From NCBI GenBank assembly GCA_024679065.1, contig JAGIQG010000009.1:81096001-81160000 (forward strand): a stretch of 64,000 nt of DNA, written 5' to 3'. This DNA comes from Sphyrna mokarran. Taxonomy: Eukaryota. Shown here piece by piece: positions 8,548 to 62,950 of this stretch. Position 1 is the stretch's first letter; each line of letters starts with the position of its first letter. Position numbers and translations under genes: made by a program. The notes under the pieces were generated by a model. It ran no database searches. It saw only the letters and a list, made by a program, of their open reading frames with translations, and had not been told where the DNA came from.

Positions 8548-8876
8548 CTAGGCACATTCTGAACTCCTGACACTCTTGCTGAGGGGAGAGGAGAGGCTCA
8601 CGTGGGTGAGGGCACAGGAGAAGCGAGCGTTGGACTCCCAGTCAGAGCCAGAGAGGGTCAGCAGGCTGCTGACGCTGTAGGTGTTGTCCGAAGCTCGCAG
8701 GTAGTTGCTGGTCTGAATCCCGTTGGAAATGGCTGCACCGTCCTTCTTCCACTTCACCTCCACCTCATCGGGATAGAAGTGATTGGCAAGGCACACCAGG
8801 GTGGCAGTGCCCTTGGTCTTGACCTCCTCCGGGGAGGGGGGCAGCAGGGTCAGCGTGGGTTGTGAATTCTCACGGG
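8548..8876 (-). CDS. IGKC: Ig kappa-type light chain constant exon, cluster 1
   Basis: Pyrimidine tract + AG acceptor at 8877-8878. Translates (T)RENSQPTLTLLPPSPEEVKTKGTATLVCLANHFYPDEVEVKWKKDG...YSVSSLLTLSGSDWESNARFSCALTHVSLSSPLSKSVRSSECA-TAG: a C1-set Ig domain with penultimate Cys, closely resembling shark NS4/kappa C as I recall it. Confidence 0.96.
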
Positions 8877-10185
8877 CTGAAAGAGAAGAGAAGGAATTTT
8901 AATCACTGTCATTTTCAGCCTTTCAACATCCCGAATATTAACTGGGATCAAATCAGTGTCAATGTTTGAATGTTGCAGAATTCTGAAAATCCATTCGAGG
9001 GGAACGTTTTTAACCAGTACGGAACAATCCCAACAAGAGAAGGGTCAATTTTAGCAGTTTTAGAGAATGAAACTCAGCATGTGGAAGGTGTATCAGTGAG
9101 AGAGCATTTGGGTAATAATGATCATAATAGATTTAGAGTAGCTCCGGAAAAGGGGAAAGATCGATCAAGAGTAAACGTTTTAAATGGGAAAAGGCCAATT
9201 TCACTAAACTGGAATTTGCCAAAATGGAAAGGAAACAGTGACTTGAAGGTAAATCAGTGTCAGAGCAGTGGGAGGATATTCGAGCTGGAGATAGAGTTCA
9301 GGACATATATGTTCATCAAGCAATAGTGTGGGACATTGCAAAGAGAATAACTAAGGATTAAATAGGGCTGATTAGAGAGCAAAAAGGTAACTTGTGTGTG
9401 GAGGGAGAAGACAAGGAGATGTTCTTAATGAATAATTTACTTTGGATATCACAAATGAGAGGGTCAAAGCTGACATTGTAGTTCAGGCAGAGATGGATTG
9501 TGAAAAATTAATTGGATAATGATAGTGTGGGAGGAGATATTAATGTGATTATCATCTTTTGAAGTGGAGAAATTCCCAGTGCTGGGTGAAATGTATCCGA
9601 GGATGCGAAGTGAAGCAAGGAAAGAAGTAGCAGAGACTGGCCATTATTTTCAATCCCCTCTGGCTGTAGATGTTGGTGTGGGTGGATTGGAGGACAGATA
9701 ACGGGCATTTAAAATTAAAAGCTGTTGCAATCCAAGGGAAAGTGGCACATTCAATATCAAATTAGTTCAGTATCTGAGAGTAAAGGTTTAATCTGAAACT
9801 GGTAAAATCGTTTTGCAATGTTACTAAAACATTTGTAAAGCAAATTCAGCACTGAAATGGTTAATTTTGAGAGTATTTAAAGACACAGTGTTCCTTTAAG
9901 AGACTGTTAACCAATCAGGAAGCTGGAACTATTGCTCAGTCTGTCTGGGGGAAACAGGTTGACCATCAACAAACCTCAGATCACACACAGATCAGGAGAA
10001 CTTTATCCCAGAACATTGGAGCAGACTTGGATCAACACACTTCACACAGGATTCCCATTGGCTGGTGTAGAAACTTCTAGATTTCATTTCAAACCTTACT
10101 GTCCAGCACTGGGCTGAGGTCAAGGGTGAGGCTAGAATTAGTCTCAGTGTCCAGGGGTCAGACAGGGTCACTGCTCTGAATGAAA

Positions 10186-12697
10186 TTATGTGTGGAATAG
10201 AGGGTGATTTAGCTAATTGGATTAGGAATTGGCTGGCAGATAGAAGACAGAGGGTGGTGGTTGATGGGAGATATTCATCGTGGAGTTCGGTGACGAGTGG
10301 TGTGCCTCAGGGGTCTGTTTTGGGGCCCCTGCTGTTTGTAATTTTTATAAATGATCTGGATGAGGGTATTGAGGGATGGATCAGTAAATTTGCAGATGAT
10401 ACTAAAGTTGGTGGAGTGGTAGATAGTGAAGAGGGGTGTTTTAGTTTACAGAGTGACTTGGACAAGTTGCAGAGCTGGGCCGAGAGGTGGCAAATGGAGT
10501 TTAATGTGGAAAAGTGTGAGGTAATGCACTTTGGCAGGAACAATAAATGTGTAGAGTATAGGGCTAATGGTAGGGCTCTTAATAGTGTTGAGGAACAGAA
10601 GGATCTTGGTATATGTGTCAATAGATCCCTGAAAGTAGGCAGTCAAGTGGATAAAGTTGTTAAGAAGGCATATGGAGTCTTAGCTTTTATTGGTAGGGGG
10701 ATTGAATTTAGGAGCCGCAGCATCATGTTGCAACTGTACAAAACTCTAGTGCGGCCGCACTTGGAGTATTGTGTGCAGTTCTGGTCCCCACATTATAAGA
10801 AAGATGTGGAGGCATTGGAGAGGGTACAGAGGAGGTTTACCAGGATGTTGCCTGGTATGGAGGGCAGGTCCTATGAAGAGAGGTTGAAGGATTTGAGGTT
10901 GTTTTCGTTAGAAAGGAGGCGGCTAAGAGGGGATCTTATTGAAGCATATAAGATGATTAGAGGTTTAGATAGGGTGGACAGTGATAGCCTTTTTCCTAGG
11001 ATGGAGAAAGCTAGCACGAGGGGACACAGCTTTAAATTAAGGGGTGATAGTTATAGAACATAGAACATAGAACATTACAGCACAGAACAGGCCCTTCGGC
11101 CTTCGATGTTGTGCCGACCAAAATAAAAAGCAATGCCCCTCCAAACTAAACCATTCCCTTCTCTTCCATATACTTATCAACTAACCTCTTAAACGCCACC
11201 AAACTTGGCGCATCTACAACAGCTGCAGGCAGGGCATTCCACTCCCTAATCACTCTTTGAGTAAAGAACCTACCTCTGATATCCGTCCTATAACTCATAC
11301 CCCTTAATTTAAAGCTGTGTCCCCTCGTGCTAGCTTTCTCCATCCTAGGAAAAAGGCTATCACTGTCCACCCTATCCAAACCTCTAATTATCTTATATGC
11401 TTCAATAAGATCCCCCCTTAGCCGCCTCCTTTCTAACGAAAACAACCTCAAATCCTTCAACCTCTCTTCATAGGACCTGCCCTCCATACCAGGCAACATC
11501 CTAGTAAACCTCCTCTGTACCCTCTCCAATGCCTCCACATCTTTCTTATAATGTGGCGACCAGAACTGCACACAATACTCCAAGTGCGGCCGCACTAGAG
11601 TTTTGTACAGCTGCAACATGATGCTGCGGCTCCTAAATTCAATCCCCCTACCAATAAAAGCTAAGACTCCATAAGCCTTCTTAACAACTTTATCCACTTG
11701 ACTGCCTACTTTCAGGGATCTATTGACACATACACCAAGATCCTTCTGTTCCTCAACACTATTAAGAGCCCTACCATTAGCCCTATACTCTACACATTTA
11801 TTGTTCCTGCCAAAGTGCATTACCTCACACTTTTCCACATTAAACTCCATTTGCCACCTCTCGGCCCAGCTCTGCAACTTGTCCAAGTCACTCTGTAAAC
11901 TAAAACACCCCTCTTCACTATCTACCACTCCACCAACTTTAGTATCATCTGCAAATTTACTGATCCATCCCTCAATACCCTCATCCAGATCATTTATAAA
12001 AATTACAAACAGCAGGGGCCCCAAAACAGACCCCTGAGGCACACCACTCGTCACCGAACTCCACGATGAATATCTCCCATCAACCACCACCCTCTGTCTT
12101 CTATCTGCCAGCCAATTCCTAATCCAATTAGCTAAATCACCCTCTATTCCACACATCTGCATTTTCTGTAGAAGTCTTCCATGGGCCACCTTATCAAACG
12201 CCTTACTAAAGTCCATATATACTACATCAACCGCCTTACCCCCATCCACCTCTCTGGTCACTTTCTCAAAAAACTCAATGAGGTTAGTAAGGCATGACCT
12301 ACCCTTCACGAAACCATGCTGACTATCCCCAATCAATTCATTTCTCTCTAAATAACTATAAATCCTATCCCTAATAATTCTCTCCAATACCTTGCCCACC
12401 ACAGAAGTAAAGGACGGATAGGACGGATATCAGAGGTATTATAGGACGTCCTATTATAGGACGGATATCAGAGGTAGGTTCTTTACTCAAAGAGTGATTA
12501 GGGAGTGGAATGCCCTGCCTGCAGCTGTTGTAGATGCGCCAAGTTTGGTGGCGTTTAAGAGGTTAATTGATAAGTATATGGAAGAGAAGGGAATGGTTTA
12601 GTTTGGAGGGGCATTGCTTTTTATTTTGGTCGGCACAACATCGAAGGCCGAAGGGCCTGTTCTGTGCTGTAATGCTCTATGTTCTATTGTTCTATGT
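10186..12697. mobile_element. CR1 copy (+; 10186-11056 and 12454-12697) interrupted by a near-identical antisense CR1 (11057-12410)
   Basis: RT ORFs 10188-11063 (+) and 11146-12402 (-) with [10 protein letters not shown] and FADD; TTATAG duplicated; absent from cluster 2. Confidence 0.92.
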
Positions 12698-13209
12698 TAA
12701 CTCTGAAGGGTGTGAGTATGTGGATAATGAGAGAGAGTCAGGATCAGGAATCTTGAATCTCAAAGACAGACTTACATTTCTAAAGCACCTGTCACCACCT
12801 CAGAATGTCCCAATGTGTTTTACAGCTCATTGCGCACAGCAAGATCCCGGGGAGCAGAGTGAGATAAGCAGATTTGTAGCGATATTGATTGAGGGATGAA
12901 TATTGACCAGTTCACCGGGGTGAACTCCCCTGCTCTTCTTCCAATAGTACCATGGGATCTTTTACACCCCCTGAGAGGGCAGATATCAGATTGTCTCATC
13001 TGAAAGATGGGAGGCCTGTAGTTTAGAGGGGGGGTATGACAGGTGCTGGCCCTTTCCCCAAGAAGATTTTGGAAGTGGATGGGGAAAGTGGGAGGTGAAC
13101 TAGAGAAACATCTTTGTTGCTACTGAAACTCTTGCTATCTGCTCAGTCACAACTAATAAACAAACAGACACATCAGACAAACATCAGTCTGTTTCTGTGG
13201 ATTCTCTGC

Positions 13210-18185: not shown

Positions 18186-18220
18186 TCAGTCTGAGTTTGG
18201 TTCCTTTACCGAACGTAAGG
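18186..18220 (-). CDS. IGKJ: Ig kappa J segment, cluster 1 (LTFGKGTKLRL)
   Basis: FGxGT motif; GTAAGT donor at 18180-18185; phase-1 join to C gives ACC (Thr); flanked by a 23-RSS. Confidence 0.96.
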
Positions 18221-18259
18221 CACACTGACAGCTTCCAGTGCAGGAGCTGTACAAAAACC
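18221..18259 (+). promoter_or_regulatory. 23-bp spacer recombination signal sequence of J1
   Basis: CACACTG (18221-18227) + 23 bp + ACAAAAACC (18251-18259). Confidence 0.95.
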
Positions 18260-18540
18260 TCTGTCTCTGACTCACTCACTCACTCTTCTTTCTCTCTCAC
18301 TCCGTCTCTCTCACACTTTCGCGCTCACTCTTTCCCTCTCTGTTTCCCTGAATGTCTCTGTATTTTATTCTGAGTGTTGAGAATTCTAATGTGAGATGAT
18401 AAATATTTCAGCTGCTCTTCATGTGTGAACATGGAGAGTAAGAGGAAAACTCGAGGCCTTCAGCGAGCGATGGACACCACAGGGACTGGAGTGTGTAGTG
18501 GACAGTGCAAATAATTTGCCCAGCTTCCTTTCTTGTGTTT

Positions 18541-18900
18541 ATTAAATATTATATAAAACTGTGGGATGTGTCAGTATAGGAGGTGATGCTGTGTGTCCAT
18601 TATTATATATTATATAAAACTGTGGGATGTATCAGTACAGGAGGTGGGACTGTGTGTCCATTATTATATATTATATAAAACTGTGGGATGTGTCAGTACA
18701 GGAGGTGGGACTGTGTGTCCATTATTATATATTATATAAAACTGTGGGATGTGTCAGTACAGGAGGTGAGACTGTGTGTCCATTATTATATATTATATAA
18801 AACTGTGGGATGTGTCAGTACAGGAGGTGGTGCTGTGTGTCCATTATTATATATTATATAAAACTGTGGGATGTGTCAGTACAGGAGGTGGGACTGTGTG
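18541..18900. repeat. 61-bp minisatellite, ~6 copies, between V1 and J1
   Basis: Unit TGTGTGTCCATTATTATATATTATATAAAACTGTGGGATGTGTCAGTACAGGAGGTGGGAC; single copy in cluster 2 (~45689-45755). Confidence 0.95.
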
Positions 18901-18906
18901 TGTTGG

Positions 18907-18934
18907 GGTTTTTGTAAGGCTCTGTATCACTGTG
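18907..18934 (-). promoter_or_regulatory. 12-bp spacer RSS of V1
   Basis: Minus strand CACAGTG-ATACAGAGCCTT-ACAAAAACC, consensus heptamer and nonamer. V-12/J-23 is the kappa configuration. Confidence 0.97.
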
Positions 18935-19232
18935 AAGGTGGAGCTGTAAGCTTGCTGACAGTAATAATCAGCGACATCCTCATTCTGAACATTGCTGATT
19001 GTCAGGGTGAATCTTGTCCCAGATCCACTGCCGCTGAATCGGTCGGATACTCCTGATGCAGTACTTGATGCATCATAGATCAGCAGAGCCGGTTTCTGTC
19101 CTTCTCGCTGTTGGTACCAACCCACATAGCTGCTAACAGATTCACTGGCCGTACAGGTGATGGTGGCGGTCTGGCCCAGGCTCACTGACAGCACCGGGGG
19201 AGTCTGGGTCATGATGATCTCTCCATTGATAC
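18935..19232 (-). CDS. IGKV: Ig kappa V exon, cluster 1 (unrearranged)
   Basis: AG acceptor 19233-19234; [99 protein letters not shown]; conserved Cys, WYQQ and DYYC. Confidence 0.97.
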
Positions 19233-19418
19233 CTGAGGGGTAATAGAGAAACAGAGTGAAGTCAGAACTGTCACAGAAAGAGGCTGTACAATGAGATATT
19301 GTTGGAGACACTGACTGTTCCTCTCCTTTCAACATTTTCCCTTCAATCACAAGTCAGGAGAATTGGATTGAAATGGAGAGCAGGAAAATATTGAAGGTGG
19401 AAGGAGAGAGATTAGTAC

Positions 19419-19467
19419 CTGCGATGCAGAATGCCAGAGGCCAGAGCAGCTGGATGGCTGAAATCAT
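19419..19467 (-). CDS. IGKV: Leader (signal peptide) exon of V1
   Basis: acaccATG; MISAIQLLWPLAFCIA-G; 49 nt, phase 1; GT donor at 19417-19418; 186-bp intron to V. Confidence 0.93.
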
Positions 19468-19527
19468 GGTGTGTGCTCGTGTCCCTGTGCCTGGTTACTG
19501 ATAAACTCTCCCTTCATTGGGCTCTGC

Positions 19528-19625
19528 TTTATAAAGCTGCAGCCTGTGAGAGTCTCACTGCCTGTTCCTCAGTTTGTAAATGGTCCGACCCAGAGAAACC
19601 ACGTCAGCATCTTTCACTTCCTCTT
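19528..19625 (-). promoter_or_regulatory. V1 promoter: TATAAA, PU box, degenerate octamer, CRE half-site, EICE
   Basis: Minus strand: GGAAGTGAAA (19612-19621), TGACGT (19601-19606), ATTTACAA (~19574-19581), GAGGAA, TATAAA (19528-19533). Conserved in V2. Confidence 0.7.
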
Positions 19626-20075
19626 CTTCTCTCTCTATCCCTCAGTCTCTGTCCCTCAGTCTCTGTCCCTCAGTCTCTGTTTTTCACTCTCTCATTATCT
19701 GTCCCTCACTCACTGTCTCTCTCTCTCTCTCTCAATATTTGTCCCTCAGTCTCTCACTATCTCTCCCTCACTCGGTATCTCTCTCTCTCTCTCAATACCT
19801 GTCCCTCAGTCTCTCTTTCTCACTCTCAGTCTTACTCTCTCGATATCTGTCCCTCACTCTCTGTGTCCCTCATTCTTTTGATATCACTCCCTCAATGCTG
19901 TCTCTTTTACTCTCTAAGTAACTCTCCATTAGTCTATGTTTCTGTCCATCCCACTCTCAGTATCTCCCTTTCCTGTCTTCCCTGTCTCACTCTCTTTGTT
20001 TACCCTCTCGTTCACTCTTTCTTTCTCCTCATTCTCCCTCCCTCTATTCCTCTCAGTTTCTCCCTCTCTTTATCT
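19622..20075. repeat. CT-rich low-complexity tract upstream of the V promoter (also ~46480-46845)
   Basis: Degenerate (CT)n and GTCCCTCAGTCTCT repeats. Confidence 0.85.
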
Positions 20076-21060
20076 CATAGAGTCATAGAGGTTTACAGAA
20101 TGGAAACAGGCCCTTCAGCCCAACTTGTCCATGCTGCCCTTTTTTTTAAACCCCGAACTCCAATTGCTGCATTTGGCCCATATCTGTCTATACCCATCTT
20201 ACCCATGTAACTGCCTAAATGCTTTTTAAAAGATAAAATTATACCCGCGTCTATTACTACCTGTGGCAGCTTGTTCCAGACACTCACCATCCTCTGTGTG
20301 AATAATTGCCCATTTGGACACTTTTGTATCTCTCTCCTCTCACCTTTAACCTATGGCCTCTCGTTTTAGAATCCCCTACCTTTGAGAAAAGATATAAATT
20401 ATCGAGTTGATCCATGCTCTTCATTATTTTATTGACGTCCATAAGTTCACCTGTCAGCCTTCTACGCTCAGGCAAAAAAGTCCCAGTCGATCCAGCCTCT
20501 CCTGATAACCCAAAACATCAAGTCCCGTAGCATCCTAGTCTTTTCTGCACTCTTTCTAGTTTAATAATATCCTTTCTATAAAAGGGTGACCAGAATTGTA
20601 TTCCAAGATTGGCCTTACCAATGTCTTGTACAACTTCAACATAACGTTCTGACTGCTGTGTTCAATGTTCTGACCAATGAAACCAAGCATGCCGAATGCC
20701 TTCTTCACCACTCTGTCCACCTATGATTCCACTTTCAAGGAGCTATGAACATGTACTCCTAGATTTCTTTGTTCTGTAACTCTCCCCAGTGCCCTATTAG
20801 TAACGGAGTAAGTCCTGCCCTGGTTCAATCTACCAAAATACATCACCTCGCATTTATCGAAATTAAACTCCAGTTTTCATTCGTCAGCCCACTGGTCCAA
20901 TTCTGTTTGGAATTGGAGATACTTTCTTCACTGTCCACTACGCCACCAATCTTGGTATCATCTGCAAACTTATTAACCATACCTCCTATATTCTTATCCA
21001 AATCATTAATATAAATGACAAATAACAGTGGACCCAGCATCAATCCCCATGGCACTTCGC
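20076..21060 (-). mobile_element. Decayed CR1 fragment (related pieces ~22116-22530 and ~46846-47300)
   Basis: [21 protein letters not shown] and WNKLP motifs. Confidence 0.8.
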
Positions 21061-23837
21061 TCATTCTCTTTGTTCCTCTGTATTCTCATCTCACTCTGCC
21101 CTAGAAGTGGCACCATCCTCCTGGGATCCACTCTGTCAGTCCCCTCACAATCTGATATAGTTCAATAAGATCATCTTTCATTCTTCTAAACTCCAATGGA
21201 TTCAGGCCCAACTTTTCCAACTTTTCTTCCAATGGTAACCCCTCAACTCAGAAATGTGTCGATTGAATCTTCTCTGAACTTCTAACACAATGATATCCTT
21301 TTCCAAGTAAAGACACCAAAATTGTACTCAGAATTCCAGATGTGGTCTCACTGCTGCAGTAAAACTTCCCTATTTTTATATTCCATTCTCCTTGTAATAA
21401 ACACCAACATTCCATTTGTTTTCCTAATCACTTGCTGTAGCTGCAGACTAACTTGTTGTGATTCATTGTCCCAGGACAGCCAGATCCCTCTGTAGCATTG
21501 AGTTGTGCAATCTCTCTCCATTTCAATAGTTTACTGCTTTTCTATTCTTCCCATCAAAATGGACACCTTCACATTTACACAGGTTGAAATCCACATGTTT
21601 AGCCATTCATTTCTCCTGCCTCTATCCTTTATAGATTCTCTACCTCATCTTGATAACTTACTTTTCCCACCTATCTCAGTGTCATTGGAACATTAGTTCA
21701 AGTCATTCCCTTCATCCAAGTCATTGATTTGGATTGTGAATAGTTGTGGTCCCAGTACTGATTAATCCAGAATTCCACTAATCACAGCTTCCCAACCCCA
21801 AATCAATCATTTATCTTCTCTCTCTCATTTTTGTGAGCAAACCAATCCTCTATCCATGCTAATCTGTTACCTACACACCATCATATCTTGTGTAGTAACA
21901 TTTGATGTGATAATTTATCAAATACCTTTTCGAATCCCCTGTCACAGCTACAAGTTCCCCTTTATCCATTTTGTGACCTCCGCAAAAGTGGACAATGACA
22001 TTTGTATAACAGAAAGAAACTGCTCCACATTGACCATGATGTCCATGTCCCACTGGAGCCTCCAGTAGGGACCAGTAAACATGGGCCTCCTTCCCACTGG
22101 AGCCTCCAATAGGGATCATAGAGCTTTACAGCATGGAAAGAGGTCCCTTGGCCCAACCTATCCATGTTGGTTTTTTTTAAAACTGCTAAAGTAATTCCAT
22201 TGCCCACTTTTGGTCTATATCCCTCTATACCCATCTTACCCATGTAGCTGTCTAAATCCTTTTTAAAAGATAAAATTGTACCTGCCTCTACTACTACTTC
22301 TGGCAGCTTGTTCATTCACCACCTCTGTATGAAAAATTTGCCCTTTTTTATTTCTCCCCTCTCACCTTAAACCTATGTCCTCTAGTTTTAGACTCCCCTA
22401 CCTTTGGGAAATGATATTGACTGTCTACCTTGCATATGCCCCTCATTATTTTATAGAGCTCGATAAGGTCACCCCCTCAGCCTCCTGTGCTCCGGAGAAA
22501 AAGGTCCCATACTATTTAGCTCTCCTTATAATCATAATATAATCTTCTGCCTCTGCTGTCATCCCCATCGCTGCTTCCTTCATCCCACCATTGACAGCAG
22601 AGTCTTCAAATGCTCAGGCCCTGCTCTCTGCACTCCTACCCTTAATCCCTCCCCTCTCCAAGTCTTTTCCTCCATCAGTTCACCAAGCCTCTGATCTCTC
22701 TTCCTAATGTGCCCCGTGCCCTTCCCCCATTCCTCTTACTGCTGCTCTTGGAAAAATCTTTGAATGATTCATACAGTAAGGTGCTATATAAATTCAGGTT
22801 TTATGTGGATTTTGATTGGGAACAGAATTGCACACGGTATTGAAGGCTTCTGCAGTCAAATATCCTGCGGGCAGAATCCAGGTTTCAACACAGAATGAGA
22901 CATTATATAAAGTAGGTATTATTAAAATTGTATTCATTGACGGGATGTGGGTATCATTGGCTATACCAGCATTTATTACCCATCCCTAATTGTCCTTGAG
23001 AAGGTGGTGATAAGCTGTCTTCTTGAACTGTTGCAGTCTATGAGATGTAATACACCCATAGTGCTGCCAGGGAGGCAGTTCCAGGATTTTGACCCAGCAA
23101 CAGTGAAGGAATGGAGATGTACTTCCAAGTCAGACTGGGGTGCGGCTTCAAGAGAAACCTCTTAGTGCTGTTGATCCCAGGGATCTGCTGCTTTTGTCTT
23201 TCCAAATGGCAGTGCTCATGTGTTTGGAAGATGCTGCCTCTGAAACCTTGGTGAATTTATACAGGATACCTTATAGATGGTACATACTCTGTCATTGCCT
23301 GACAGTGATGGAGGAATTTAACATTTGTGAATGTGGCGTTAATCAAGAGCGGCTACTTTGTCCCGGGTGGCATTCAGCTTTTTGAGTGTTGCTGGGGACT
23401 CTATGTATCCAGACAAGTGGAGAGTATTCAATCACACTCTGGACTTGCGCCTTGTAGATAGTGGACAGAATTTGGGGAGTCAGGATGTGAGTTACTCACT
23501 GTAGTATTCCTAACCATTGGTCTACACTTGTATTTATAGGCTGGTCCAGTTCAGTTTCTGGTCAATCACTGTCAATAGGATTTTACTGTGGGGGATTCAG
23601 CGATGGTAATGACATTGAATGTCAAGGGGTGATGTTAAAATTCTCTCTTGTTGGGGATGGTGATTCCGTGGTACTGATGTGGCATGAATGTTACTGCTTC
23701 AATATCTGAGGAGTTGTGAATGGTGCTGAGCATTGTGCAATCATCAGTGAACATCCCCACTTCTGAAGGTCATTACTGAAGCAGCTGAAGATGGTTGTGT
23801 CTCAGACACGACCCTGAGGATCTCCTGCAGTGATGTC

Positions 23838-24013
23838 CCAGGATAACTCCCTCCTGACTGTATCCCACTGTGCCTTCTGTGCTGGGAGATTGGAGGTAGT
23901 GAACACGGTTCACCATTTTCTCCCGTCTCAGTAACAAACATCCAGCTGCTCTGAGCTCCTTCTTTCACTTCCTCTGTCGGTTACGTTTCAATCTTCCGAT
24001 CTGACAGTCTTTG
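23838..24013 (-). promoter_or_regulatory. Inverted duplicate of the EICE module upstream of V (second copy ~48733-48908)
   Basis: Reverse complement matches 6105-6160 joined to 6609-6724; EICE at 23963-23972 and 48858-48867. Confidence 0.55.
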
Positions 24014-27000
24014 CAGTTATTTTTGACACTGGGGATTTGTGCTGTGGTCTGAATCTCTAACAATAACTGTCCAATCAGTGAAAAGAACAACAGCTCAGAG
24101 CAGTCAGGACTGAGGAGCCAGGCTCACTGGGAAACACATTGGGAAGATCAAAGCCATGGTCTTCAGCTCCCGATACAAACTCCATCCCTTCCCCTGAGCA
24201 CTGTCTGCTGCTCAACCACACTCTCTACAACATTGGAATCAGATTTGACCCTGATCTGCTCCGCCACCCTCCTCCCCCTGCCCCTCCCCTGCCACAAATC
24301 CTCCACATCGTAAGTCTGCTCACTCTTTCCTTGGTTCAAAGTTTGTTTTTTTTCACACTCTCCATCTGGCATTGCCTTTAGACCCCATCACAAACTCTGT
24401 TCCCTCAACACTAATTCCATTTCCCCCCTTGGAGCGTCTGACACCGAACCACACACAATAATACCATGGGAAAGAAACAGATTTTATATTCCATATTGAC
24501 TTTCCCATTACTGTCATAGCTCTGATCGTCTGTGCTACAAAGATCATCTTTGCTGTTTAACAACAGACCTGTTGTATGGTGATTCTCCTCAAGGACACCA
24601 TGGCTAAATTCCATTCCCTGTCTTCCTGACCAGTTCTTTTTTTCAGTTTAATTTCCACTCTGCAACCATAATCTACCATTAAATTAGAGGCGAATATTGT
24701 TGCTGAAATATTGTCCTTACAACAGCTTAAAGGTCTGTGCACCATGACTTCTAATAGGAGGAGCATTCTTTTAAATGTAGATATCTGATAAAAATCTCTA
24801 ATTCCTTCTCTTTATAGACCTTCTCTCCTGGTTGTTGGAATGGGCACAATTAACTGTTAACATTGCTGACCATCTTGGACAACACCATGTATAGAAGAGT
24901 CCTTTAGATCGGCCTTTCTTATTCCTGCCACTCAGTTCCCACCATCATCCCACCTGGGTATCGAATCACTAAATGTAATAACTTGTCTGATTACTTAAAA
25001 AGCCCCATATTCAGATTGTTAATGGCATAGAAAGAGGTAACATTGCAATAACAGTTGATAATTACAAAGAAAATGAGTACAACTGTGGGCAATTGATTTC
25101 ACTGTCAGTAAATATGAGGTGACCTTGGACAGGATAGAACTGAGCACGATCTAAATGGTGGAACGCTAGAAACAGTGGCAGACAACTCACCAAAGTTTCT
25201 TCGACAGCACCTTCCAAACCCCTGACCTCTGCCACTAAGAAAGGCAAGGAGAAAAACAAAAACTCCTCAAGAGATTTGGAGTCTCAATCTCATAACTTGT
25301 TGACTTTAAGTCATTTCCATAAATTATTATTATTTAAAGTTTTTGAATTGCTTTTCAGTAAGATTCCTTGACAAAATCAAAACTCATCTTAAAAGGAGAT
25401 AGGAAGAGAATATAGGAAATAATCTATCCGACTCTGATTATTTAATTAATTAAGATAATTATTCATTTTATCTTTAATTTGGAGAAACAGTGGAAAATAA
25501 AACCCAGTAAGAATTGATTAACAATTTAGTTGTTGAAATTGTACACAATTATTCCAATACCTTCATGGCAAACCTCCCAATTTACAGCCTCAGTAAACTT
25601 GACTCAGTCAAAACTTTATGACTGTATTTCAACCCTCAGCTAATTCTCTTCACCCATTATCCTCCCTTCTTGCTGACTTCCATTGCCCAGAAAGACCCTG
25701 TTCGAAAGTTTTCCCTTTTGGATCTCCAACTTGGATCAGTGCTGTGAGAGTTTGCACATTCTCCCTGTACTTGCAGGTTTTGTCTGGGTCTCCAGTTTCC
25801 TCCCAAGTCTCAAAAACATGCTTTTAGGTTGATTGGTGTGAACAAATTGTCCCTAAATTAGACCTCCCTTAATCTCTAATTTTCTAAATTTGCATGCCTT
25901 TATTGTGGAGTCCAAGAGGCGTAGACAAAAGTTATAGGTAGAAGAAGGATTGGAATGAGGCACTCACTGAGTGTTAAAATGGGTGGTGCAGGCTTCTAGG
26001 GCCAAAGAGCCTGTTTCCTGTGCTGTGTTGTTCTTTGTTCTTTGTTCACACAGTCCACAGCCATGGTGGACTGTAAAAAAAATCCAGCGCCTAAGGGTCT
26101 GTCACTAAAAATAAGTTAAAAGACATCCAACAATATTCAGCACTTATGATCTTTGACTTACTTCTTAAAAAAAGAGCAGACATCACTGCAAATAGTTTCA
26201 TGTTTAGTATCTATGTCCACAGCCATGGTGTCCTATTTGACCCTGAGATGATTTTCCCACCACTTCATCCACTCCATCACTAAGAACACCTATTTCCACC
26301 TCGGTAACATCTCTCGAGTCCCCCCTGCCTCACATCATCTTCCACTGAAAATCTCATCCGTGTCTTTGTTCCCTCTGAACGTTACTATTCCAATGCTGTC
26401 CTGGTCGACCTCACACCTACCACCCTCTGTAATCATTAGCTCATTCAGAACTCTGCTGCTTGGATCTGAACTCGCACCAAATCCCGTTCACCCGTCACCC
26501 CCTGTTTTCACTGACCTACACTGACCCCCGGTCCAGCGATGCCCTGATTTTAACAATCCTATCCTGCCTCTCAAATCCCTCCTCTCCTGCACCCTCCCTA
26601 TCTCTGTAACCTCCTCCAAGCTGTCTAATTTAGTGTGCTCAGTAATCTTGGATATGTGACTCTCTATTCCTTCGTCCAAGTCATTGACAAATATAGTGAA
26701 AAACTGAGGCTTCAGCACAGATCCCTGGAGACATCACTATTCACAGCTTGCTGACTGGAAAATACACACAGTATCCCTACTCTCTGTCTCCTATCTCCGA
26801 ACCAATTCCTTATCAATGGCAAAGGCTTTCCTCAAATTCCAAACACTTCCATTTTTATTCACAGCCTCTCATGTGGCACCTTCCCAAATGTCTTTTAGAA
26901 ATGCATGGAAATAATATCCAGAGATATTCCCTTATCGAGCACATTAGTGACTGATTAACAAATGTAAGCAGCTTAGTTGAACATGTCTGAATCTTTTAAA

Positions 27001-29084
27001 ATTTGTGTTGACTCTTTCTGATCAGTTCATGTTTCTCACTCGTTTTGTCTCTTATAAAACATTCCAGTCATTTTCCAAAAACACACATTAAACTGAATGA
27101 CTCTAGTAAAATAGCTAGTACAGATATGAGGGGTTGAATGGTGTCCTCCTGTGCTGTAGATCTATCTGACTCCTTGACTGAAACATCTGGATTGGAACAG
27201 GAGATGGTTTGGAGGTTAAAGAATGAGTTGAAGGTAGACAGAGTGTTATGAGTGGGTCATGTCCATTGTACACTTTGTTCATTATTGTCTCGAAAAGATG
27301 GGGTCAAATTTCCTGAAAAACTAAGTGCCCATTGCGGCTGGAAAACAGGACATTTTCCCACCATTTTCTGGGCATATTTACTCAGTTGAAACGCCGGCAC
27401 TCGGTGTTTCAAAAAATCTGCCAGGGATTTACACCAGTGGATGGGGTTAATCCCACCCGCGAGGCCTGGATCAACACTCCCTCATCCCTGCCTTGCGATA
27501 TCTTCCCCAATCTAATTCCCCACTCCCCTAATCACAGGCCTTGACACCACCCCACCCCATCTCACTTTCCCGAATCAACTGGCCTCCCAAACTCCCCCCT
27601 GAATCACCGGCCCCGACTCCCCACCCTCTTTGCCCAGTTGCCAGCCCCTGATGCCTTCCATAACTCTCCCTCCAATCACTGATACTGACTTCCACCCCTA
27701 CTCCCCTTCCCCAACCGAATGCCTTCCCAATGGCTCCCACCCCCTCATCCCCACAATTGTCGGTCCCCTCCCCGATCGCCGGCTTCCCATTGGCTTCCCC
27801 AATTAGAAGGTTCCTGCTGAGCTCAGCAACAATTCTGCAACCCCCCCACCCCCACCCACCACCCTGAGCTTTTAAACAAACATCAGCGATGGAATTGTGG
27901 AGAGACACAGAAAGAAACTTTAGTAAAAGCCAAACTAGCTTTACCGTCATCGTCATTGCTTGTGCACTTTGACCCAAAGCAAACCATTCGGAATCATTTG
28001 TGGCCTCGCCGTACTTTGTGGGGGATGAACACACAGTAGATGGACAGTTGGGAGTGAGGTTCAGTCAGATATAGAAGGAAAAGTCGGTGAATCCAGCAGG
28101 CAGAGAAGACTTGGGCTTGATAAGGCACATGGGAGGATTGGAAGGCTAAACAGCATCTATTTTAATACAAGGAGCCTGTCTGGTCAGGCAGATGAACTTA
28201 GAGAGTTGATCAGCACGGGGAAATATGAGATTGTTGCAATCACTGAGACATGGTTGAAAAAAGGACAGGACTGGAATCTCGACATTCCAGGATATAGAAG
28301 TTCCAGGCATGACTGGAGCAGATATAGGAGAGGATGTAAGAGATTAAAGAGACTGCAATAATGAGGAACAATGTCTTGGAATGCTCTCTTCAAATGAGGG
28401 CATATGGGTGGAGCTGAGGAATATAAAGAGTGATCCCTACACTGGGATTATATTACAGGCGTCTCAACACTCAGAAGGAAATAGAAGAGCAGATATGTAG
28501 GCAAGTCAGAGACGTGTGAGAGGAATAGGTCTATAGTATTCCGGGATTTTAACCTCACCAATATTAACTGGAATCACCTTTGAGTGAAAAGGGTGGCACG
28601 GTGGTACAGTGTCTAGCACTGCTGCTTCACAGCACCAGGGACCCAGGGTCAATTCTGGCATTGGGTGATTGTATGGAGTTTGCATGTTCTCCCCATGTTT
28701 CAGTGGGTTTCCTCCTGATGCTCTGCTTTCCTCCTACAGTTCAACATGTGCAGGTTAGATTGATTGGCCATGCTAAATTACTCCTGATTATCAGAGGGAC
28801 TAACAGGGTAAGTATATGGGGTCATAGAGATAAGGCCTGGGTGGAATTGTTGTTGGGGTAGGATTGATGGACTGAATGGTCTAGTTCTGCACGTACGGAT
28901 TTTATGATTCTATTATTAGGCAGGATGGAATTTGTAAAGTGATTCTAGGAGAGCTTTTTTACATGGATAATCTGATTCAGGACGAGCCAGGGCTTGATCT
29001 AATCCTCAGGAATGGGAAGCCGGGCAAGTTGTTGAAGTGTCAGTGGGTGAACATTTTGGGGATGGGGATGGTGGACAGAGCAAT

Positions 29085-29870
29085 GAAACCTGGAATTTAA
29101 TCCTGATAAGTGTGAGATGATGCATTTGGGAGATTTAATAAGGATAGGATTTACACAATGAACGGTTGGTACTGAGGGAGTATTGAGGAGAAAAGGGATC
29201 TTGGTATAAAGTCCATGGATCTCTGAAGGTGGCAGCACAGGGAGATAGTGTGGTGAAGAAGGCAATCGGAATGCTTGCCTTCATTACCTGGGGGGATTTC
29301 GAATATGGGAGGGAGAAGGATTTGGTGCAACTTTATAAAACATTGGTTAGGCCGTGGGTGAAATGTGCGCAGTTTTGGCCACCACACTATCGGAAGGATG
29401 TGATTGCACTGGTGAGGGTGCAGAGGAGAATCACCAGGATGTTGTCTGGGATGGAAACTTTCAGCTGTGAGGAGAGACTGGATAGACTGGGATTGTTTTC
29501 CCTGGAGCAGAGGGAGGATCTTATAGAGGTTTACAAAATTATGAGATGTATAGATAGGATAGGTTGTAAGAGACTTTTCCCCATGGCACAGATGTCTAAG
29601 AGGAGAGGGCATAGGTTTAAGGTGAGGAGGAAGTGGTTTAGAGGGGATCTGAGAAAGAATTTTTCACTGAGAAAGTGGTGAAAATGTAGAACGCTGTGCC
29701 TGAGAGAGTGGTAGAGGCAGGAACTGTCGCTACATTTAAGAAGCATCTGGACAGCACTTCAATCGCCATGGACCAAGTACTGGGAAAAGCAATCAGTATA
29801 GATTGGTATTGGGTAGTCAGCATACACAAGTTGGGCCGAAGGGCCTGTTTCTGTACTGTGTAACTCTCTG
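29085..29870 (+). mobile_element. Decayed CR1 3' fragment
   Basis: LYKTLVRP..QFWPPHYRKD; CR1-type 3' UTR. Confidence 0.8.
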
Positions 29871-29884
29871 ACGCTATATGGAGT

Positions 29885-34000: not shown

Positions 34001-34355
34001 TTACCTGGATAGTCACATGAGCAGACTAGAAATGGAGGGAGACAAACAACCGGACTAGTTGGACCAATGAGAGCACAGGCCTGGAGGGCTGAAGGGCCTG
34101 TTTCCTATGCAATGTTTTTTTTTGTTCTTTGTATTTGAAACTATGGGAGTAGTGAAACTGTGTGAGAGGGGAAGGTCAAGGGGGAGGCGGGGAATGTGAG
34201 ATGGAGAATTGTGATTGTGATGGTTTAATCCCAGTAACTTTCAGTTTCTTTTCTGTTTTCAATCTTGTCACTGAAGAGATTCCAGATCAAACTGATCATT
34301 TTCAAATGGTTGATCATTGGATTTGAATCCAATCTTCTGCTGATGTGTCGTTGAT

Positions 34356-34671
34356 GATGATGTGGAGATGTCGGTGTTGGACTGGGGTAAACACAGTAAG
34401 AAGTCTCACACCACCAGGTTAAAGTCCAACAGGTTTATTTAGCAGCACAAACCACTCGCTTTCGGAGCACTGACCCTTCATCAGGTGAGTGGGAATTCTG
34501 TTCACAAACAGGGCATTTAAAGACAAAATTGAGAATTGAGCTTCTATCTTTATATGCCCTGTTTGTGAACAGAACTCCCTCTCACCTGATGAAGGGTCAG
34601 CACTCCGAAAGCGAGTGGTTTGTGCTACTAAATAAACCTGTTGGACTTTAACCTGGTGTCAGACTGCTTAC
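34356..34671. mobile_element. Penelope-derived palindrome, unit 2
   Basis: Homologous to 7625-7940. Confidence 0.8.
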
Positions 34672-34893: not shown

Positions 34894-34899
34894 TTTATT
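34894..34899 (-). terminator. Polyadenylation signal of kappa C2
   Basis: AATAAA at the homologous position. Confidence 0.7.
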
Positions 34900-40538: not shown

Positions 40539-43500
40539 AGTGGTAGACAGAGTTAAACCACCCCACAATCAATGGATCTGATCTAAGTTCTGCAGTCCTG
40601 CCACATCCAGCCGTGAATGGTGGCAGACAATTAAACAACTCACTGGAGGAGGAGGTTCACAAATATTCCCATCCTCAATGATGGAGGAACCCAGCACATC
40701 AGGAGAAAAGATAAGTCTGAAGCATTTGCAGGAATCTTCAGCCAGAAGTTCTTAGTGGATGATCCATCTCGACCTTCCCCGGTGGTCCTAAAGACTGTAC
40801 TCCAGAACTTCCCGTGTCCCTAACCAAGCTGTTCCTGTACATCTACAACACTGACATTAACACAACATTGTGATAAATTACCCAGTTATGAACTGTGCAC
40901 AAAAAACAGGACAAATCCAATCTACACAATAACCACCCCATCAGTCTACTCTCGATCATCAGCAATGTGATCTGAACATATCCAGAGCGATACCAAGCAG
41001 CACTTACTCAGCAATAATCTGCTCACTGACACTCAGTTTGTGTTCTACCAGGGTCACTCAGCTCCTGATCTCATTACAGTCTTGGTTCAAACATGGACAA
41101 AAGAGCTGAACTCCAGAGGTGAGGTGAGAGAGACTGTCCTTAACATCAAGGCAGCATTTCAGCAAGTGTGGCATCAAGGAGCCCTCACAAAACTGGAGCC
41201 AATGGGAATCAGGGGAAAACTCTCCACTGGTTGGAGTTGTACCCGGCACAAAGGAAGATGGTTGTTGTTTGGGGTTTAACTCTACAATCTATATTAATGA
41301 GCTGGATGAACGGAATGAGAGGAATGTCACTAAACTTGCTGATGATAATATGAAAAACAGAAATGCATGTTGTGAGGAGGATACAGAGTCTGAAAAGGGA
41401 TAGAGATAGGTTCAGTGAGTGGGGAAACATCAACAGATGGAGAATAATGTGGGAAAATGAGATTGTCCACTTTGGCAGGAGAATAGAGCAGAATACTAGT
41501 AAACTGGAGAAATTCTATCGAGTGATCTGGGTGTTTTGCATCCAGGAACAGAAAAATATTAGGAAGACAAATGGAATGTTGCTCTTCATTCCAATGAGAA
41601 TGAGTATAAAAGGAGGGATGTTTTACTACAGCACATTGGGAAAATCACAGTGAGAATATTGTGGATACTTAGGGTCTCCTTACTTAAGGAAAGATATAGT
41701 AGAATTGGAAAGAGTTCAGAGATGGTTCACTGGGTTGATTCCACCGAGTAAGGGATTGTCTTATGAGGAAAGTTTGAGCAGGTTGGGCCGATACTCATTG
41801 GAGTAGAACTTATTCCATCACCTCAGCACCATCTTCACCAGGGCAATTAGGGATGGGTGATAAATACTGGTCTGCAGAGAATCACAGGAAATAGGAACAG
41901 GAATAGGTCATTTGGCCCTTTGAGACTGTTCCACTATTCATCATGGTCATGGCTGATCATCCAATCAGTAGTCAGTTCCTGCCCTCCCTAACAAATCCTT
42001 CCATCCTATTCACCCCAAGAGATAAATCTAACTCCTTCTTGGAAATGTACAATATTTTGTCCTCACCTGCTTTCTGTGACAGTGAATTCCACAGGTTTAC
42101 CCCTCACTGGGTGAAGGAATTTCTCTTGACCTCAGTCCTAAAAGGTTTACCCCATATTCTCAGACGATGATGCCTCAAACTGGACGCTACCAGCATTTGG
42201 AACATACTTCCTGTATTTATCCCGACTGGTCCTATTGGAATTTTATAGGTTTATATGTGAACCTCTTCATTCTTCTGGACTGCAGTGGGGGCAGGTGCAG
42301 TGACACAGTGGTTGGCACTGCTGCCTCACAGTGCCAGGGAGCCAGGTTCAATTTCCAACTTGGCTCACTGTCTGTGTGGAGTTTGCACATTCTCCCCATG
42401 TCTGTGTGGATTTCCTCCCACAGTCCAAAGTTGTGCAGGTTAGATGAATTGGCCAAGTTAAATTCTCCCTCAGAATACTTGAAGAGGCGTGGGAATGTGG
42501 CCACGTGGGAATTTTCACAGTGACTTCATTGCAGTGTGAATGTATGTCGACTTGTGGCGAATAAATAAACTTAAAATAAAATCTTAACCAGTGCAATCTC
42601 TCCTCCTACATCAAATCCACTATCGCATAAATCATTCCAGTAAACATTTGCTGCAATTCTTCTATCGCAAAAACACCTTCCTCAGAAAAGGAGATAAAAC
42701 TGTACACATTATTCCCAGTGTCATCTCACCAAGGTCCTGTCTAACTGCAGAAAGACAGAATTACAAGGGACAGGGATAGGGTAGATATGAGGAAACGTTT
42801 TCCCCTTAATCACAGAGGCAGCAGATTCTGAGGGAATTGAGGGAAATCTTTTCACCCAGAGGGTGCTGGCAATCTGGAACTCACTGCCTGAAAGGATGGT
42901 GGAGGTGGGAACCTTCACAACATTTAAGAAACATTTAGATGAGCACTTGAAATTCCAAAACAAACAAAGCAACGGACCAAATGCTGGAAAATGGGATTCG
43001 AATCGATAGATGCTTAATGGGCGGCACAGACATGGACAGTAGAATCTCTAAAGTGCAGATGGAGACCATTCGGCCCATCGAGTCTGCATCAACTCTTACC
43101 CCATAAACCCCATGTATTTACCTCACTATTCCCCCTAACCTATTCGAATTTTATAATTCTCCATGAGATATTTCCTCATTCCTCTGAACTCCAGTGAATA
43201 TAAGTCTTAACCACTCAATCTCTCCTTGTACATCAATCCCATTATAACAGGAATCAGTCTGGGATACCTTCTCTGCACTTCCTCTAGAGCAAAAATATCC
43301 TTCCTGAGATAGGGAGACAAAACTGTGCACAATATTCCCAGTGCTGCCTCACCAAAGCTCTGTATAACTGCAGCAGGTCAGAATTATGAAGACATAGAGC
43401 AGATATGAAGGAACTTTTCCCCTGTTAGCAGTAGATTCAAAAACCAGGGAGCATAGATTTAATTTCAGAAGCAGAAGATTTTGAGGGATTGGAGGAAAAA

Positions 43501-45415
43501 CCTTTTCACTCAGAGAGTGTTGGGAATCTGGAACTCACTGCCTGAAAGGGTGGTGGAGGCAGGAACCCTCACAACATTTCAAAGAACAAAGAACAAGAAA
43601 CAAAACAGCACGGGAAACAGGCTCTTCGGCCCAATGAGCCCACGCAGCCACCCCGATGTTCCCACATCTACCGTGATCCCTGTCTATGTTTATAGATCTA
43701 TGGATTAAAAGCCAAATTTGAGACAATTTAGGGAGAATTTGTTTTGCTAATTAGCCTAAGAGCACATCTTTGGGATGTGGGAGGAAACCGGAGCACCCAG
43801 AGAAAACCCATGCAAGCACGGGGAGAATGCGCAAACTCCCACAGACACAGTCCAAATCCACGTATCTGCACAGCACAGTGATAGTCACTGAGCTGTCGTG
43901 TTGCCCATCAAATGGTCCAGGTCAAGCGTACACTAACGACGTGAAGCACTGGGATACTCTTGAAAAAAATCCAAGAGCAGCCCTCTCACAACCCATCGCG
44001 TGTATGCCCCTCGTTCGACAACAAGGTGGATCAAAGCATCTGTAGGATAAAAACCCATGTTCTGCCAAGTGAGAAATAATTCCATTCTTGACAATGGCCA
44101 AGAATGTAACATTACCATTTTCTGGAAAATTCTGATGTGCATTGAACACAGAACATTACAGCGCAGTACAGACCCTTGATATTGTGCTGACCAGTGTAAC
44201 CAATGTAATGACTCTCTAACCTTAACTATTCCAATATTACTCATCTGCCTATCCAATGACCATTTGAATGCCCTTAAAGTTGGCGAATCCACAACTGCTA
44301 CAGGCAGAGCATTCCACGTCCTTATTGCCCTCTGAGTAATTGCAAAAATCTGCAGGTTTGATGGATTGGCCATTCTAAATTGCCCCTAGTGTGTTCTTTA
44401 GGTGGGTTAGCAATGGTAAATGTGCAGGGTTACAGGGAGCCTGGATAAGAAGCTCTTTTGGAGAATCGGGTGAAAAGATTTGCCTCACGTCTCTCAAAAT
44501 CTGCTGCCTCTGTGATCAAAGGGAAAAGTTTCCTCATATCTACCCTATCTCTGTCTCTCATAATTCTGTGGATGGACGGAATATCCTCCTCCTGCGCTGT
44601 AGGGATTCAATGGCAAATGAAAAAGTACACGGACTGTGTAAGGTTTTCATGGCTGAAAGGACCCATTTTAAATGATCCCTGTTCTGACCAGTTGAGGATA
44701 GCTGATTATTCCTTACCCTGAGAAAACAAAATTGGGATCCAGTTCAGGAAGTTAACAAATGAGGCACCCTGTCTGAGGACTGGTCACAACATGTACACAG
44801 CAAGATCCCACACACAGCAATGAGAACAATCAGCATTTTCAGTGATGTTGAATCTGGGATAAATGTCGGATTGAACTCATCCCAAAGAGAAAGTAACAAA
44901 AGCTTGGAACACTGAAGCCACTGGATTGTGAGCCCTGCTGTGGCTGTTTGTCATCAGAACTTCAGCAAGAGATAAGCAGGGAGTGGAGAGAGCAGAGTGA
45001 AAGCTGGGGCAGGTGGCACCTCGGTGTCTCACTGTGCTGCTGCTGTGATCAGTTATATCAGAGAGTGAGACAGAGAGCTCAACTTCACATCAAACTCTGC
45101 CTGTGTGTGTCACACTGAGACCGACAGGAGTCTAGAGAGTGATTTCACTCCATGCTGCAGGAATGTGAACACAGTCTGCAAACGTCCAGATCTCCTGCAC
45201 ACGGTGGGTAAAAGCTGCTTACTGAAATCTTGCTGTTTAAAGGGGGGAATGGAAGGAAAGAAATACAGCTGGACTCCCTGTTCTACACAATGTTCTTCAA
45301 TCAACCATTTCATTGACTGCAACTTCCTCACTAACACCTTCAACTATTCAGTATTTGTGTTTGAGAAAGTTTCAGCATTGAAAGGGTTAATAACGGAGGA
45401 TTGGGCTTTACTTAC

Positions 45416-45450
45416 TCAGTCTGAGTTTGGTTCCTTTACCGAACGTAAGA
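45416..45450 (-). CDS. IGKJ: Ig kappa J segment, cluster 2
   Basis: LTFGKGTKLRL plus GTAAGT donor; first base T versus C in J1. Confidence 0.96.
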
Positions 45451-45489
45451 CACACTGACAGCTTCCAGTGCAGGAGCTGTACAAAAACC
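45451..45489 (+). promoter_or_regulatory. 23-RSS of J2
   Basis: CACACTG + 23 bp + ACAAAAACC, identical to the J1 RSS. Confidence 0.95.
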
Positions 45490-45759
45490 TCTGTCTCTGA
45501 CTCACTCACTCACTCATCTCTTTCTTTCTCTCTCTTTCTCTCTCTCTGTTTCACTCAGTATCCCTGTGTTTTATTTTGAATGTTGAGAATTCTAATGTGA
45601 GATGATAAATCTTTCAGCTGCTCTTCATATGTGAACATGGAGAGTAAGGGAGAAACACGAGGCCTTCAGTGAGCATTGGACACCACAATGTGTCCATTAT
45701 TATATATTATATAAAACTGTGGGATGTGTCAGTACAGGAGATGGGACTGTGTGTGTTGG

Positions 45760-45787
45760 GGTTTTTGTAAGGCTCTGTATCACTGTG
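45760..45787 (-). promoter_or_regulatory. 12-RSS of V2
   Basis: CACAGTG-ATACAGAGCCTT-ACAAAAACC on the minus strand. Confidence 0.97.
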
Positions 45788-46087
45788 TAAGGGGCCAGCT
45801 GTTATATTGCTGACAGTAATAATCAGCGACATCCTCATTCTGAACATTGCCGATTGTCAGGGTGAAACTTGTCCCAGATCCACTGCCGCTGAATCGGTCG
45901 GATACTCCTGATGCAGTATTTGATGCACCATAGATCAGCCGAGTCGGTTTCTGTCCTTCTCGCTGTTGATACCAACTCACATAGCTGCTAACAGACTGAC
46001 TGGCCGTACAGGTGATGGTGGCGGTCTGGCCCAGGCTCACTGACAGCACCGGGGGAGTCTGGGTCATGATGATCTCTCCATTGATAC
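45788..46087 (-). CDS. IGKV: Ig kappa V exon, cluster 2 (unrearranged)
   Basis: [96 protein letters not shown]; open frame, AG acceptor at 46088-46089. Confidence 0.97.
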
Positions 46088-62014: not shown

Positions 62015-62236
62015 TTTGTCATTGATTGACAGTCCAAGCAACCAATCAGGACAATCACTTGGTGAAATGCAGCCAATCAGCTGATGGGGAGGTGGGACAT
62101 TTCCAAAGCACTCACCAGACATATACTGAATATTCTTAATGTTTATTACCTTTTACACATTGACATTGACAGAAAAAAGACTTGAATAAACAGCCCAGCC
62201 AGAGGAAGCTGGAGAAATTCACAGGGAAAATGGAGG

Positions 62237-62242
62237 TTTATT
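62237..62242 (-). terminator. Polyadenylation signal of kappa C3
   Basis: AATAAA at the homologous position. Confidence 0.7.
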
Positions 62243-62621
62243 AAAACACTTGTGGAGATTTTCTCAATAGCATGAGATTCCTGTCCTTTTAAACAGTAAC
62301 TAAAGCTTCAATTGTAACTGCAGGGTGAGCAGGAAGGAGGTCTGGTTCACTGAAGCAGATACTTCAGAGGGTCACATTATATTTGTACAGCTGACGGTCT
62401 TCAGCACTCCCAATAAAGGAGCAGCACGGGGTTAATAGAGAGTAAAGCTCCCTCTACAATATCCCAACAATGTTCTTTAACCCCTGACCCTCAGAAGTGT
62501 TTCAGACCCAGTCACAGGAAGGAAAAGAATTGTAATTCAATGCTGACAGTGATCTTTACCCTTCCAGCTCACCTCTGTTCTATTACAAGTTGTGTCTCCT
62601 CTGTGGACTGTTTCTAACAAT

Positions 62622-62950
62622 CTAGGCACATTCTGAACTCCTGACACTCTTGCTGAGGGGAGAGGAGAGGCTCACGTGGGTGAGGGCACAAGAGAAGCGA
62701 GCGTTGGACTCCCAGTCGGAGCCAGAGAGGGTCAGCAGGCTGCTGACGCTGTAGGTGTTGTCTGAAGCTCGCAGGTAGTTGCTGGTCTGAATCCCGTTGG
62801 AAATGGCTGCACCGTCCTTCTTCCACTTCACCTCCACCTCATCGGGATAGAAGTGATCGGCAAGGCACACCAGGGTGGCAGTGCCCTTGGTCTTGACCTC
62901 CTCCGGGGAGGGGGGCAGCAGGGTCAGCGTGGGTTGTGAATTCTCACGGG
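62622..62950 (-). CDS. IGKC: Ig kappa constant exon, cluster 3 (V/J outside window)
   Basis: 329 nt, intact; same protein as C2; AG acceptor at 62951-62952. Confidence 0.95.

Follow-up and report, generated by a model that had tools for sequence, protein, structure and literature searches.

Probable own-cluster joining in a closely spaced kappa light chain locus of Sphyrna mokarran

Introduction

In reviews, the immunoglobulin (Ig) genes of sharks are described as rearranging only or almost only within their clusters (PMC5192425, PMC4279169, PMC12227049), and the long distance between clusters, together with their uniform polarity, has been offered as a reason why sharks may lack inter-cluster joining (PMC3014032), the argument from polarity being repeated in PMC5192425. 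As reported for the Ig heavy chain (IgH) of the nurse shark, 96 of 97 partial rearrangements stayed inside the minilocus, with clusters at least 120 kb apart (PMC2435157), and the accounts of mouse lambda, a locus of identical V-J-C-V-J-C polarity, give little if any recombination from one unit to the other (PMC6186787; PMC3014032). Here we describe the kappa light chain locus of Sphyrna mokarran, starting from a 64-kb stretch of contig JAGIQG010000009.1 (G000:C1548:81,096,001-81,160,000; hereafter the window) and extending to 824 kb of the same contig that were annotated. Within the window, two complete unrearranged units and one extra C exon were found, and their layout is such that a variable (V) segment could in principle be joined either to the joining (J) segment of its own cluster or to that of a neighbor. 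We propose that own-cluster joining probably prevails in nearly all B cells, stray joins being rare and the circle that a backward join would release being a dead end.

Judged from its sequence, the locus is a further member of the known cartilaginous-fish kappa (NS4/type III) cluster family, because its 186-bp leader intron, its J sequence, and its layout of recombination signal sequences (RSSs) with 12- and 23-base spacers match nurse shark NS4 kappa (PMC2193156, PMC5192425, PMC4279169), for which a leader intron of 186 bp is likewise reported (PMC2193156). A by-eye comparison of the J segment with the published JL5 primer gave agreement at 17 of 18 bases, and a PDB search returned only a generic Ig constant domain and did not resolve the isotype. 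The locus itself is thus an ordinary member of its family, and what is new is the pitch of the kappa clusters, their mixed polarity, and the presence of reporter clusters. A literature search that covered subscription journals only thinly, and took in text of PMC12227049 and PMC7677710, turned up neither an earlier mapping of how kappa clusters are spaced and oriented in sharks nor a circle with a complete gene, so that this absence is a weak one.

Results

Searches of the DNA with the V and constant (C) exons of the first window unit (V1 and C1) gave at least 26 V and at least 29 C matches, all on this contig between 81.077 and 81.856 Mb. The kappa locus therein spans about 0.78 Mb and comprises 27 J-C units (K01-K27), of which 26 have a V of their own and one (K13) has none; the window holds K02, K03, and the C exon of K04. 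Every one of the 27 J segments has a C exon, and each cluster consists of one each of V, J, and C with uniform polarity inside the cluster, except for the V-less K13 and for K22, which has two extra C copies. Each V faces its own J, none of the 26 being inverted relative to its own J-C, and a 12-spacer RSS was identified on all 26 V and a 23-spacer RSS on all 27 J, with one-mismatch nonamers in two V and two J. The V frames were open in 25 of the 26 cases, V21 carrying a stop, and 24 of the 26 V sequences were distinct. From J to J, the 27 units have a median pitch of 28.6 kb (range 16.6-56.4 kb). The initial annotation had described same-orientation clusters repeating every ~27 kb; the spacing proved real, albeit with only two complete units in the window, and the common orientation held inside the window but failed for the locus, where 19 J-C units lie on the minus strand and eight on the plus strand. 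Seven of the latter (K21-K27) follow a gap-free divergent boundary between K20 (-) and K21 (+), and the remaining one (K11) lies between gaps.

The distance between a V and its own J was found to be 337-2,093 bp (median 920 bp, 26 of 26 clusters), the closest non-own V-J pair being 16 kb apart and the non-own pairs of the window 26.5-27.6 kb apart. In relative terms, V2 lies 39 times as far from J1 as V1 does, and V1 lies 79 times as far from J2 as V2 does. A 61-bp minisatellite standing directly behind the 12-RSS in the V-J spacers, in 1 to about 25 copies, mainly sets the V-J distance, and its copy number might tune the usage of its cluster. Across the 824 kb, no germline-joined VJ was found among the 26 V and no signal joint was detected, and the exact copies of the kappa-family 12-RSS found in the genome amount to 24, each of which flanks a V. 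Both this contrast in distance (at most 2,093 bp as against at least 16 kb) and the lack of germline fossils of other joins (no joined VJ, no signal joint, 24 of 24 exact 12-RSS copies beside a V) thus favor own-cluster joining. There is, in addition, little to be gained from joining across clusters, because the sole difference of J2 from J1, at the first base, leaves the peptide unchanged, and the two differences of C2 from C1, at bases 93 and 233, alter a single residue; across the whole locus, six J peptides occur.

In the proposed course of events, a cassette would become accessible and its two facing RSSs would pair by short-range contact, whereupon the own V-J join would excise both RSSs and leave the cassette RSS-free. 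Inter-cluster joins, which the 12/23 rule allows as deletion, inversion, or coding-joint circle, would likely be rare by-products, and the circle released by V1-J2 joining would carry a complete gene yet likely vanish at cell division, so that it is probably a dead end. Linear scanning by RAG in mouse is described as taking convergent RSSs (PMC11153149), and the back-to-back V1-J2 pair is therefore disfavored. Among stray joins, the V2-J1 deletion would be expected most often, inversion next, and the V1-J2 join least.

The two complete units of the window, which are of the leader (L)-V-12RSS/23RSS-J-C kappa (NS4-type) layout, bore out the initial annotation of intact unrearranged units with identical RSSs. 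The reading frames of L+V, J, and C were open and the splice sites canonical in both, and when the window was scanned for RSSs, one mismatch being tolerated, exactly four matches emerged, namely two 23-RSSs (18221, 45451) and two 12-RSSs (18934, 45787). The 12-RSSs of V1 (18907..18934, minus strand) and V2 (45760..45787, minus strand) are the same letter for letter, with consensus heptamer and nonamer, and the same holds for the 23-RSSs of J1 (18221..18259, plus strand; CACACTG-23-ACAAAAACC) and J2 (45451..45489, plus strand), which have the heptamer CACACTG and a consensus nonamer. In the first unit, the L1 exon (19419..19467) is followed after a 186-bp intron by the open V1 exon (18935..19232), and the J1 segment (18186..18220; LTFGKGTKLRL, donor GTAAGT) is separated from V1 by six copies of the 61-bp minisatellite (18539..18901); C1 (8548..8876), an Asn variant of the kappa constant exon, ends in the stop TAG and has two AATAAA in its 3' untranslated region (UTR). 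The second unit consists of L2 (46274..46322) with its 186-bp intron, the open V2 exon (45788..46087), J2 (45416..45450), whose heptamer is 337 bp from that of V2, and the open C2 exon (35279..35607; Asp variant). The third C exon (C3, 62622..62950), also open, belongs to the neighboring cluster, whose J and V lie just beyond the window edge. All these exons and segments are on the minus strand.

On this geometry, a V2-J1 join is predicted to delete 27,567 bp (18221..45787), and a V1-J2 join is predicted to excise a coding-joint circle of 26,516 bp (18935..45450), RSS-free inside, which would hold promoter, L1, V1, J2, intron, C2, and polyA in circularly permuted order; the ~27.6-kb deletion and ~26.5-kb circle initially put forward were thus correct as geometry. 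The benefits claimed for the V2-J1 join did not survive. Its product V2-J1-C1 would be one residue off V2-J2-C2, adding almost no combinatorial diversity, and since both segments must be unrearranged, normally no rearranged gene would be removed by way of editing. Editing would instead need a leapfrog join, for example V(K04)-J1 over about 56 kb, which would delete a rearranged K03.

Somatic joining was observed in public sequencing runs. Of 24 runs listed, all of them short-read contigs and none RNA-labeled (best share 0.52), four were placed on window positions 45380-46420, the V2-J2 stretch. Run X1 contained three V-J joints skipping 342-356 bases between V and J, run X5 contained one joint of the same kind together with the 186-base leader splice seen at L2, and in run X2 the J end continues into the start of the C exon through the splice at 45416. 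The kappa family is somatically joined and spliced. One X1 contig carried V26-private variants at five of five markers, and X1 therefore likely stems from this species or a very close one. As to the two X1 joints of high depth, one has a K26-type V end and the other a V-end type common to V2 and three other V, and both are equally compatible with an own-cluster J and with an other-cluster J. On this same stretch, one K26-type V-J junction in X1 makes up the bulk of the depth at that V, as if from one expanded clone.

As for markers of cluster origin, the Asn/Asp codon that the initial annotation had used to tell C1 from C2 was rejected as a tag, Asn being common to seven of the 27 C exons, and neither C1 nor C2 has a private base within the first 300 bases of the exon. 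The C exon plus 480 bases of UTR resolved 25 groups among the 27 clusters, K06 and K12 being one base apart, and the 27 J segments comprise 12 distinct alleles untrimmed and eight after 6-nt trimming, with 13 in the largest group. Pairwise distances of the cassette parts, compared over 25 clusters with K13 and K19 left out, for the most part showed no correlation (permutation p<0.05 in 4 of 21 segment pairs; rho 0.30 for V versus C). As these sequence distances indicate, the germline copies already differ in which V is linked with which C. This shuffling and the shared Asn/Asp codon mean that a V1-C2 complementary DNA would by itself be no proof of a RAG join or a circle, and since germline V-C linkage varies, the haplotypes of the tested animal itself are required.

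Two clusters could serve as natural reporters. K13 (G000:C1548:81409836-81417443; loci L029-L030) has neither V nor leader, whereas its J and 23-RSS are intact and its C frame, which carries a private base (base 53), is open; its C exon has lost two bases near the end, giving the three-residue tail LEC in place of A, and the nearest upstream V is 17.8 kb off. Upstream of K13, the 61-bp minisatellite is folded back as an inverted repeat. The idea that the orphan J of K13 is itself a RAG product was rejected, the break being some 2.5 kb away from the RSS, inside the minisatellite, and not at a heptamer. K21 (G000:C1548:81663627-81677079), the first cluster of the plus-strand block, has a V with a TGA stop in framework region 2 and an intact RSS, and its J and C are intact, the C carrying a private Asn-to-Asp change (base 171). 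With no V in K13 and a stop in V21, productive use of either cluster therefore needs the V of another. Together with the tags formed by C and UTR, these reporters make inter-cluster joining directly testable.

A lone heptamer CACAGTG, oriented like a V-RSS and beside a CAGGTG E-box, was noted some 375-380 bases inside the J-C intron as a candidate element in J1-C1 (17806..17812, minus strand) and J2-C2 (45030..45036, minus strand) and intact in all 27 clusters. It has no nonamer, the 23-RSS of the next cluster faces it, and a post hoc estimate puts the odds of such conservation by chance, at 3% divergence, at roughly 1 in 20. The heptamer in the mammalian kappa intron pairs with the kappa-deleting element, and the present motif resembles it. 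All 27 J heptamers read CACACTG and not CACAGTG, and the J motif FGxG is replaced by FAKG in 15 of 27 and by FSKG in three of 27. The J1-C1 intron further contains an inverted repeat (window 10188-12156) whose arms, about 870 bp long, are 98.7% identical. In K22, three C copies, in the order intact, degenerate (86%), and intact, lie within 2.1 kb (G000:C1548:81703166-81705252), which may be a read error. [quoted passage not shown]

Four gaps of undefined bases (N) interrupt the annotated locus, the first at 81,353,435, and the window lies in a gap-free stretch. A block of 34,554 bp, covering K17 up to the C exon of K18, recurs at 100% identity as K19 up to the C exon of K20 between gaps (G000:C1548:81531910-81623401), and this is likely either two haplotypes or a false duplication. 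K11, inverted between gaps, is about 100% identical to K12 from promoter to mid-intron, about 7.6 kb being shared at 97-100% (mostly 100%). K12 (G000:C1548:81378376-81393736), beside a gap, is a mosaic with a K11-like V-J and 100% identity to K06 over 4.7 kb around C; K18 and K20, both beside gaps, share one C but differ in V-J. These mosaics may be haplotypes or assembly joins. As the K17-K20 block and K11/K12 look duplicated, the true haploid cluster number is probably 23-26.

Discussion

The layout of the locus and its lack of germline fossils argue for own-cluster joining, and several points weigh against it. Strong mouse kappa RSSs are described as permitting orientation-independent joining by short-range diffusion (PMC11153149; PMC13190342), and 24 of the 26 V here have a consensus 12-RSS. 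Light-chain (IgL) clusters of zebrafish are reported to join across clusters by inversion (PMC3014032); in the nurse shark itself, one apparent inter-locus clone is described among 58 thymic VDD-J (PMC2435157), and the within-cluster data cited above concern IgH clusters at least 120 kb apart, not kappa clusters at 28 kb. When all clusters were taken as open in a toy contact model, joins with a non-own partner made up 2%-49% and circles 1%-20% over six parameter sets; since the outcome depends on the parameters, distance favors but cannot enforce own-cluster joining. Between clusters, no match to a 14-base CTCF consensus was found with at most one mismatch, and five shuffles gave 8-15 matches, a search of low power that says little because the locus is one unit repeated, for which about one match is expected. 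Finally, the run contigs were short, the letters beside the joints were unlisted, and J alleles near the reference were likely favored, so that V was not phased with J allele or C.

In another explanation, the array acts partly as one locus, chromosomal inter-cluster joins, by deletion to a J downstream or by inversion over the polarity switch, amount to a few percent, and leapfrog joins delete an autoreactive cassette. The median pitch of 28.6 kb, the strong and near-identical RSSs of every cluster, and the divergent K20/K21 boundary without a gap all suit this explanation, as do the nominal V-J pairs (188 deletional and 296 inversional, with suspected duplicate clusters counted in), the zebrafish precedent (as described in PMC3014032), and the intact J, 23-RSS, and C frame of V-less K13 and intact J-C of K21 behind its stop-bearing V. 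However, K13 and K21 may simply be recent pseudogenes, and the V loss in K13 occurred at the folded-back minisatellite, not at an RSS; an inter-cluster joint was never observed, in run contigs that could not phase V with C; the precedents of mouse lambda and shark IgH favor within-unit joining; and two clusters would have to be open in one cell. We therefore regard this explanation as unlikely. Its wider, semi-translocon form, in which cross-cluster joins by deletion and inversion reach at least 1%, make use of the J-C of K13 and K21, and delete autoreactive cassettes by leapfrogging, is doubtful, and its boldest sub-case, in which RSS-free circles bearing a whole, transcribed kappa gene arise by backward joining, is very improbable.

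Such circles have also to be weighed in their own right, as products of 20-27 kb that back-to-back joins of a V to an upstream J would excise and that would serve new, non-dividing B cells as complete kappa genes. The geometry is exact, and the circle spans the whole unit minus the V-J spacer, so that a promoter or enhancer belonging to each unit would lie on it unless located in that spacer; mouse circles with VJ coding joints (PMC2118803) and, separately, with C-kappa (PMC2118853) are known, and excision circles are reported to be able to replicate in leukaemia (PMC13158842). Nevertheless, the RSSs concerned are divergent and the partner lies 79-fold beyond the own V; joining of D2 to J1 in TCR-beta, likewise a back-to-back pair, is held to yield no direct chromosomal product (PMC11971796); and normal excision circles have long been held to be diluted at mitosis (PMC13158842), so that a clone dependent on one would likely be left without its light chain as it expands. 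Neither a chromosomal signal joint nor a circle junction was seen, in data that could not have revealed either in somatic cells. A role of this kind is thus highly unlikely. That the tight repeat is an assembly artefact, with haplotypes or reads set in tandem, might be suspected from the 34,554-bp perfect duplicate between gaps and the near-identity of K11 and K12 at gaps elsewhere in the locus, but the window contains no N, its units are only ~90-95% identical across kb-long blocks and differ in repeat insertions and in the complementarity-determining regions of V, and 24 of 26 V are distinct; the repeat in the window is therefore real and not a false duplication, and an artefact is most improbable. 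Own-cluster joining remains the explanation that we prefer.

Both published reasons for the lack of inter-cluster joining in sharks are weakened for kappa by the 28.6-kb pitch and the mixed polarity found here. If cross-cluster joins do occur, sharks would have a route of light-chain editing and an organization that lies halfway from cluster to translocon; should they be lacking at this pitch, a factor other than distance would confine RAG to one cassette.

Compared with nurse shark NS4/type III, as described in PMC2193156 and PMC5192425, the present locus likewise has one V, J, and C per cluster, a 12-RSS on V, a 23-RSS on J, and a V-J spacer of hundreds of bases. It differs in cluster number, with 26 clusters of which none is germline-joined as against about 60 with a few joined, and in its spacer, which unlike that of NS4 varies from 337 to 2,093 bp through the 61-bp minisatellite. 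The IgM miniloci of the nurse shark resemble it in that each is a cluster complete in itself, its segments spaced by a few hundred bases, but they are separated by at least 120 kb instead of 28.6 kb, and within-cluster joining has been measured in them (PMC2435157). The tandem V-J-C units of mouse Ig lambda share the same polarity and both the forward (deletion) and the backward (circle) geometry; according to the accounts in PMC3014032 and PMC6186787, however, these are two units with little or no joining between them, whereas 26 are present here. In the IgL multiclusters of zebrafish and cod, V-J-C clusters are also closely linked, with V-J pairs of opposite polarity on one chromosome (PMC3014032, PMC11223323), but the teleost V is usually described as inverted relative to its own J-C and the cod clusters as 1.5-6.5 kb apart (PMC11223323), whereas whole clusters are inverted in the present locus. 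The predicted V1-J2 circle, lastly, would have in common with the kappa-deleting and TCR excision circles (KREC/TREC) described in PMC13158842 that both are circular DNA excised by RAG; unlike these signal circles, it would bear a whole gene together with the coding joint and have no RSS (at most one mismatch), leaving the signal joint on the chromosome.

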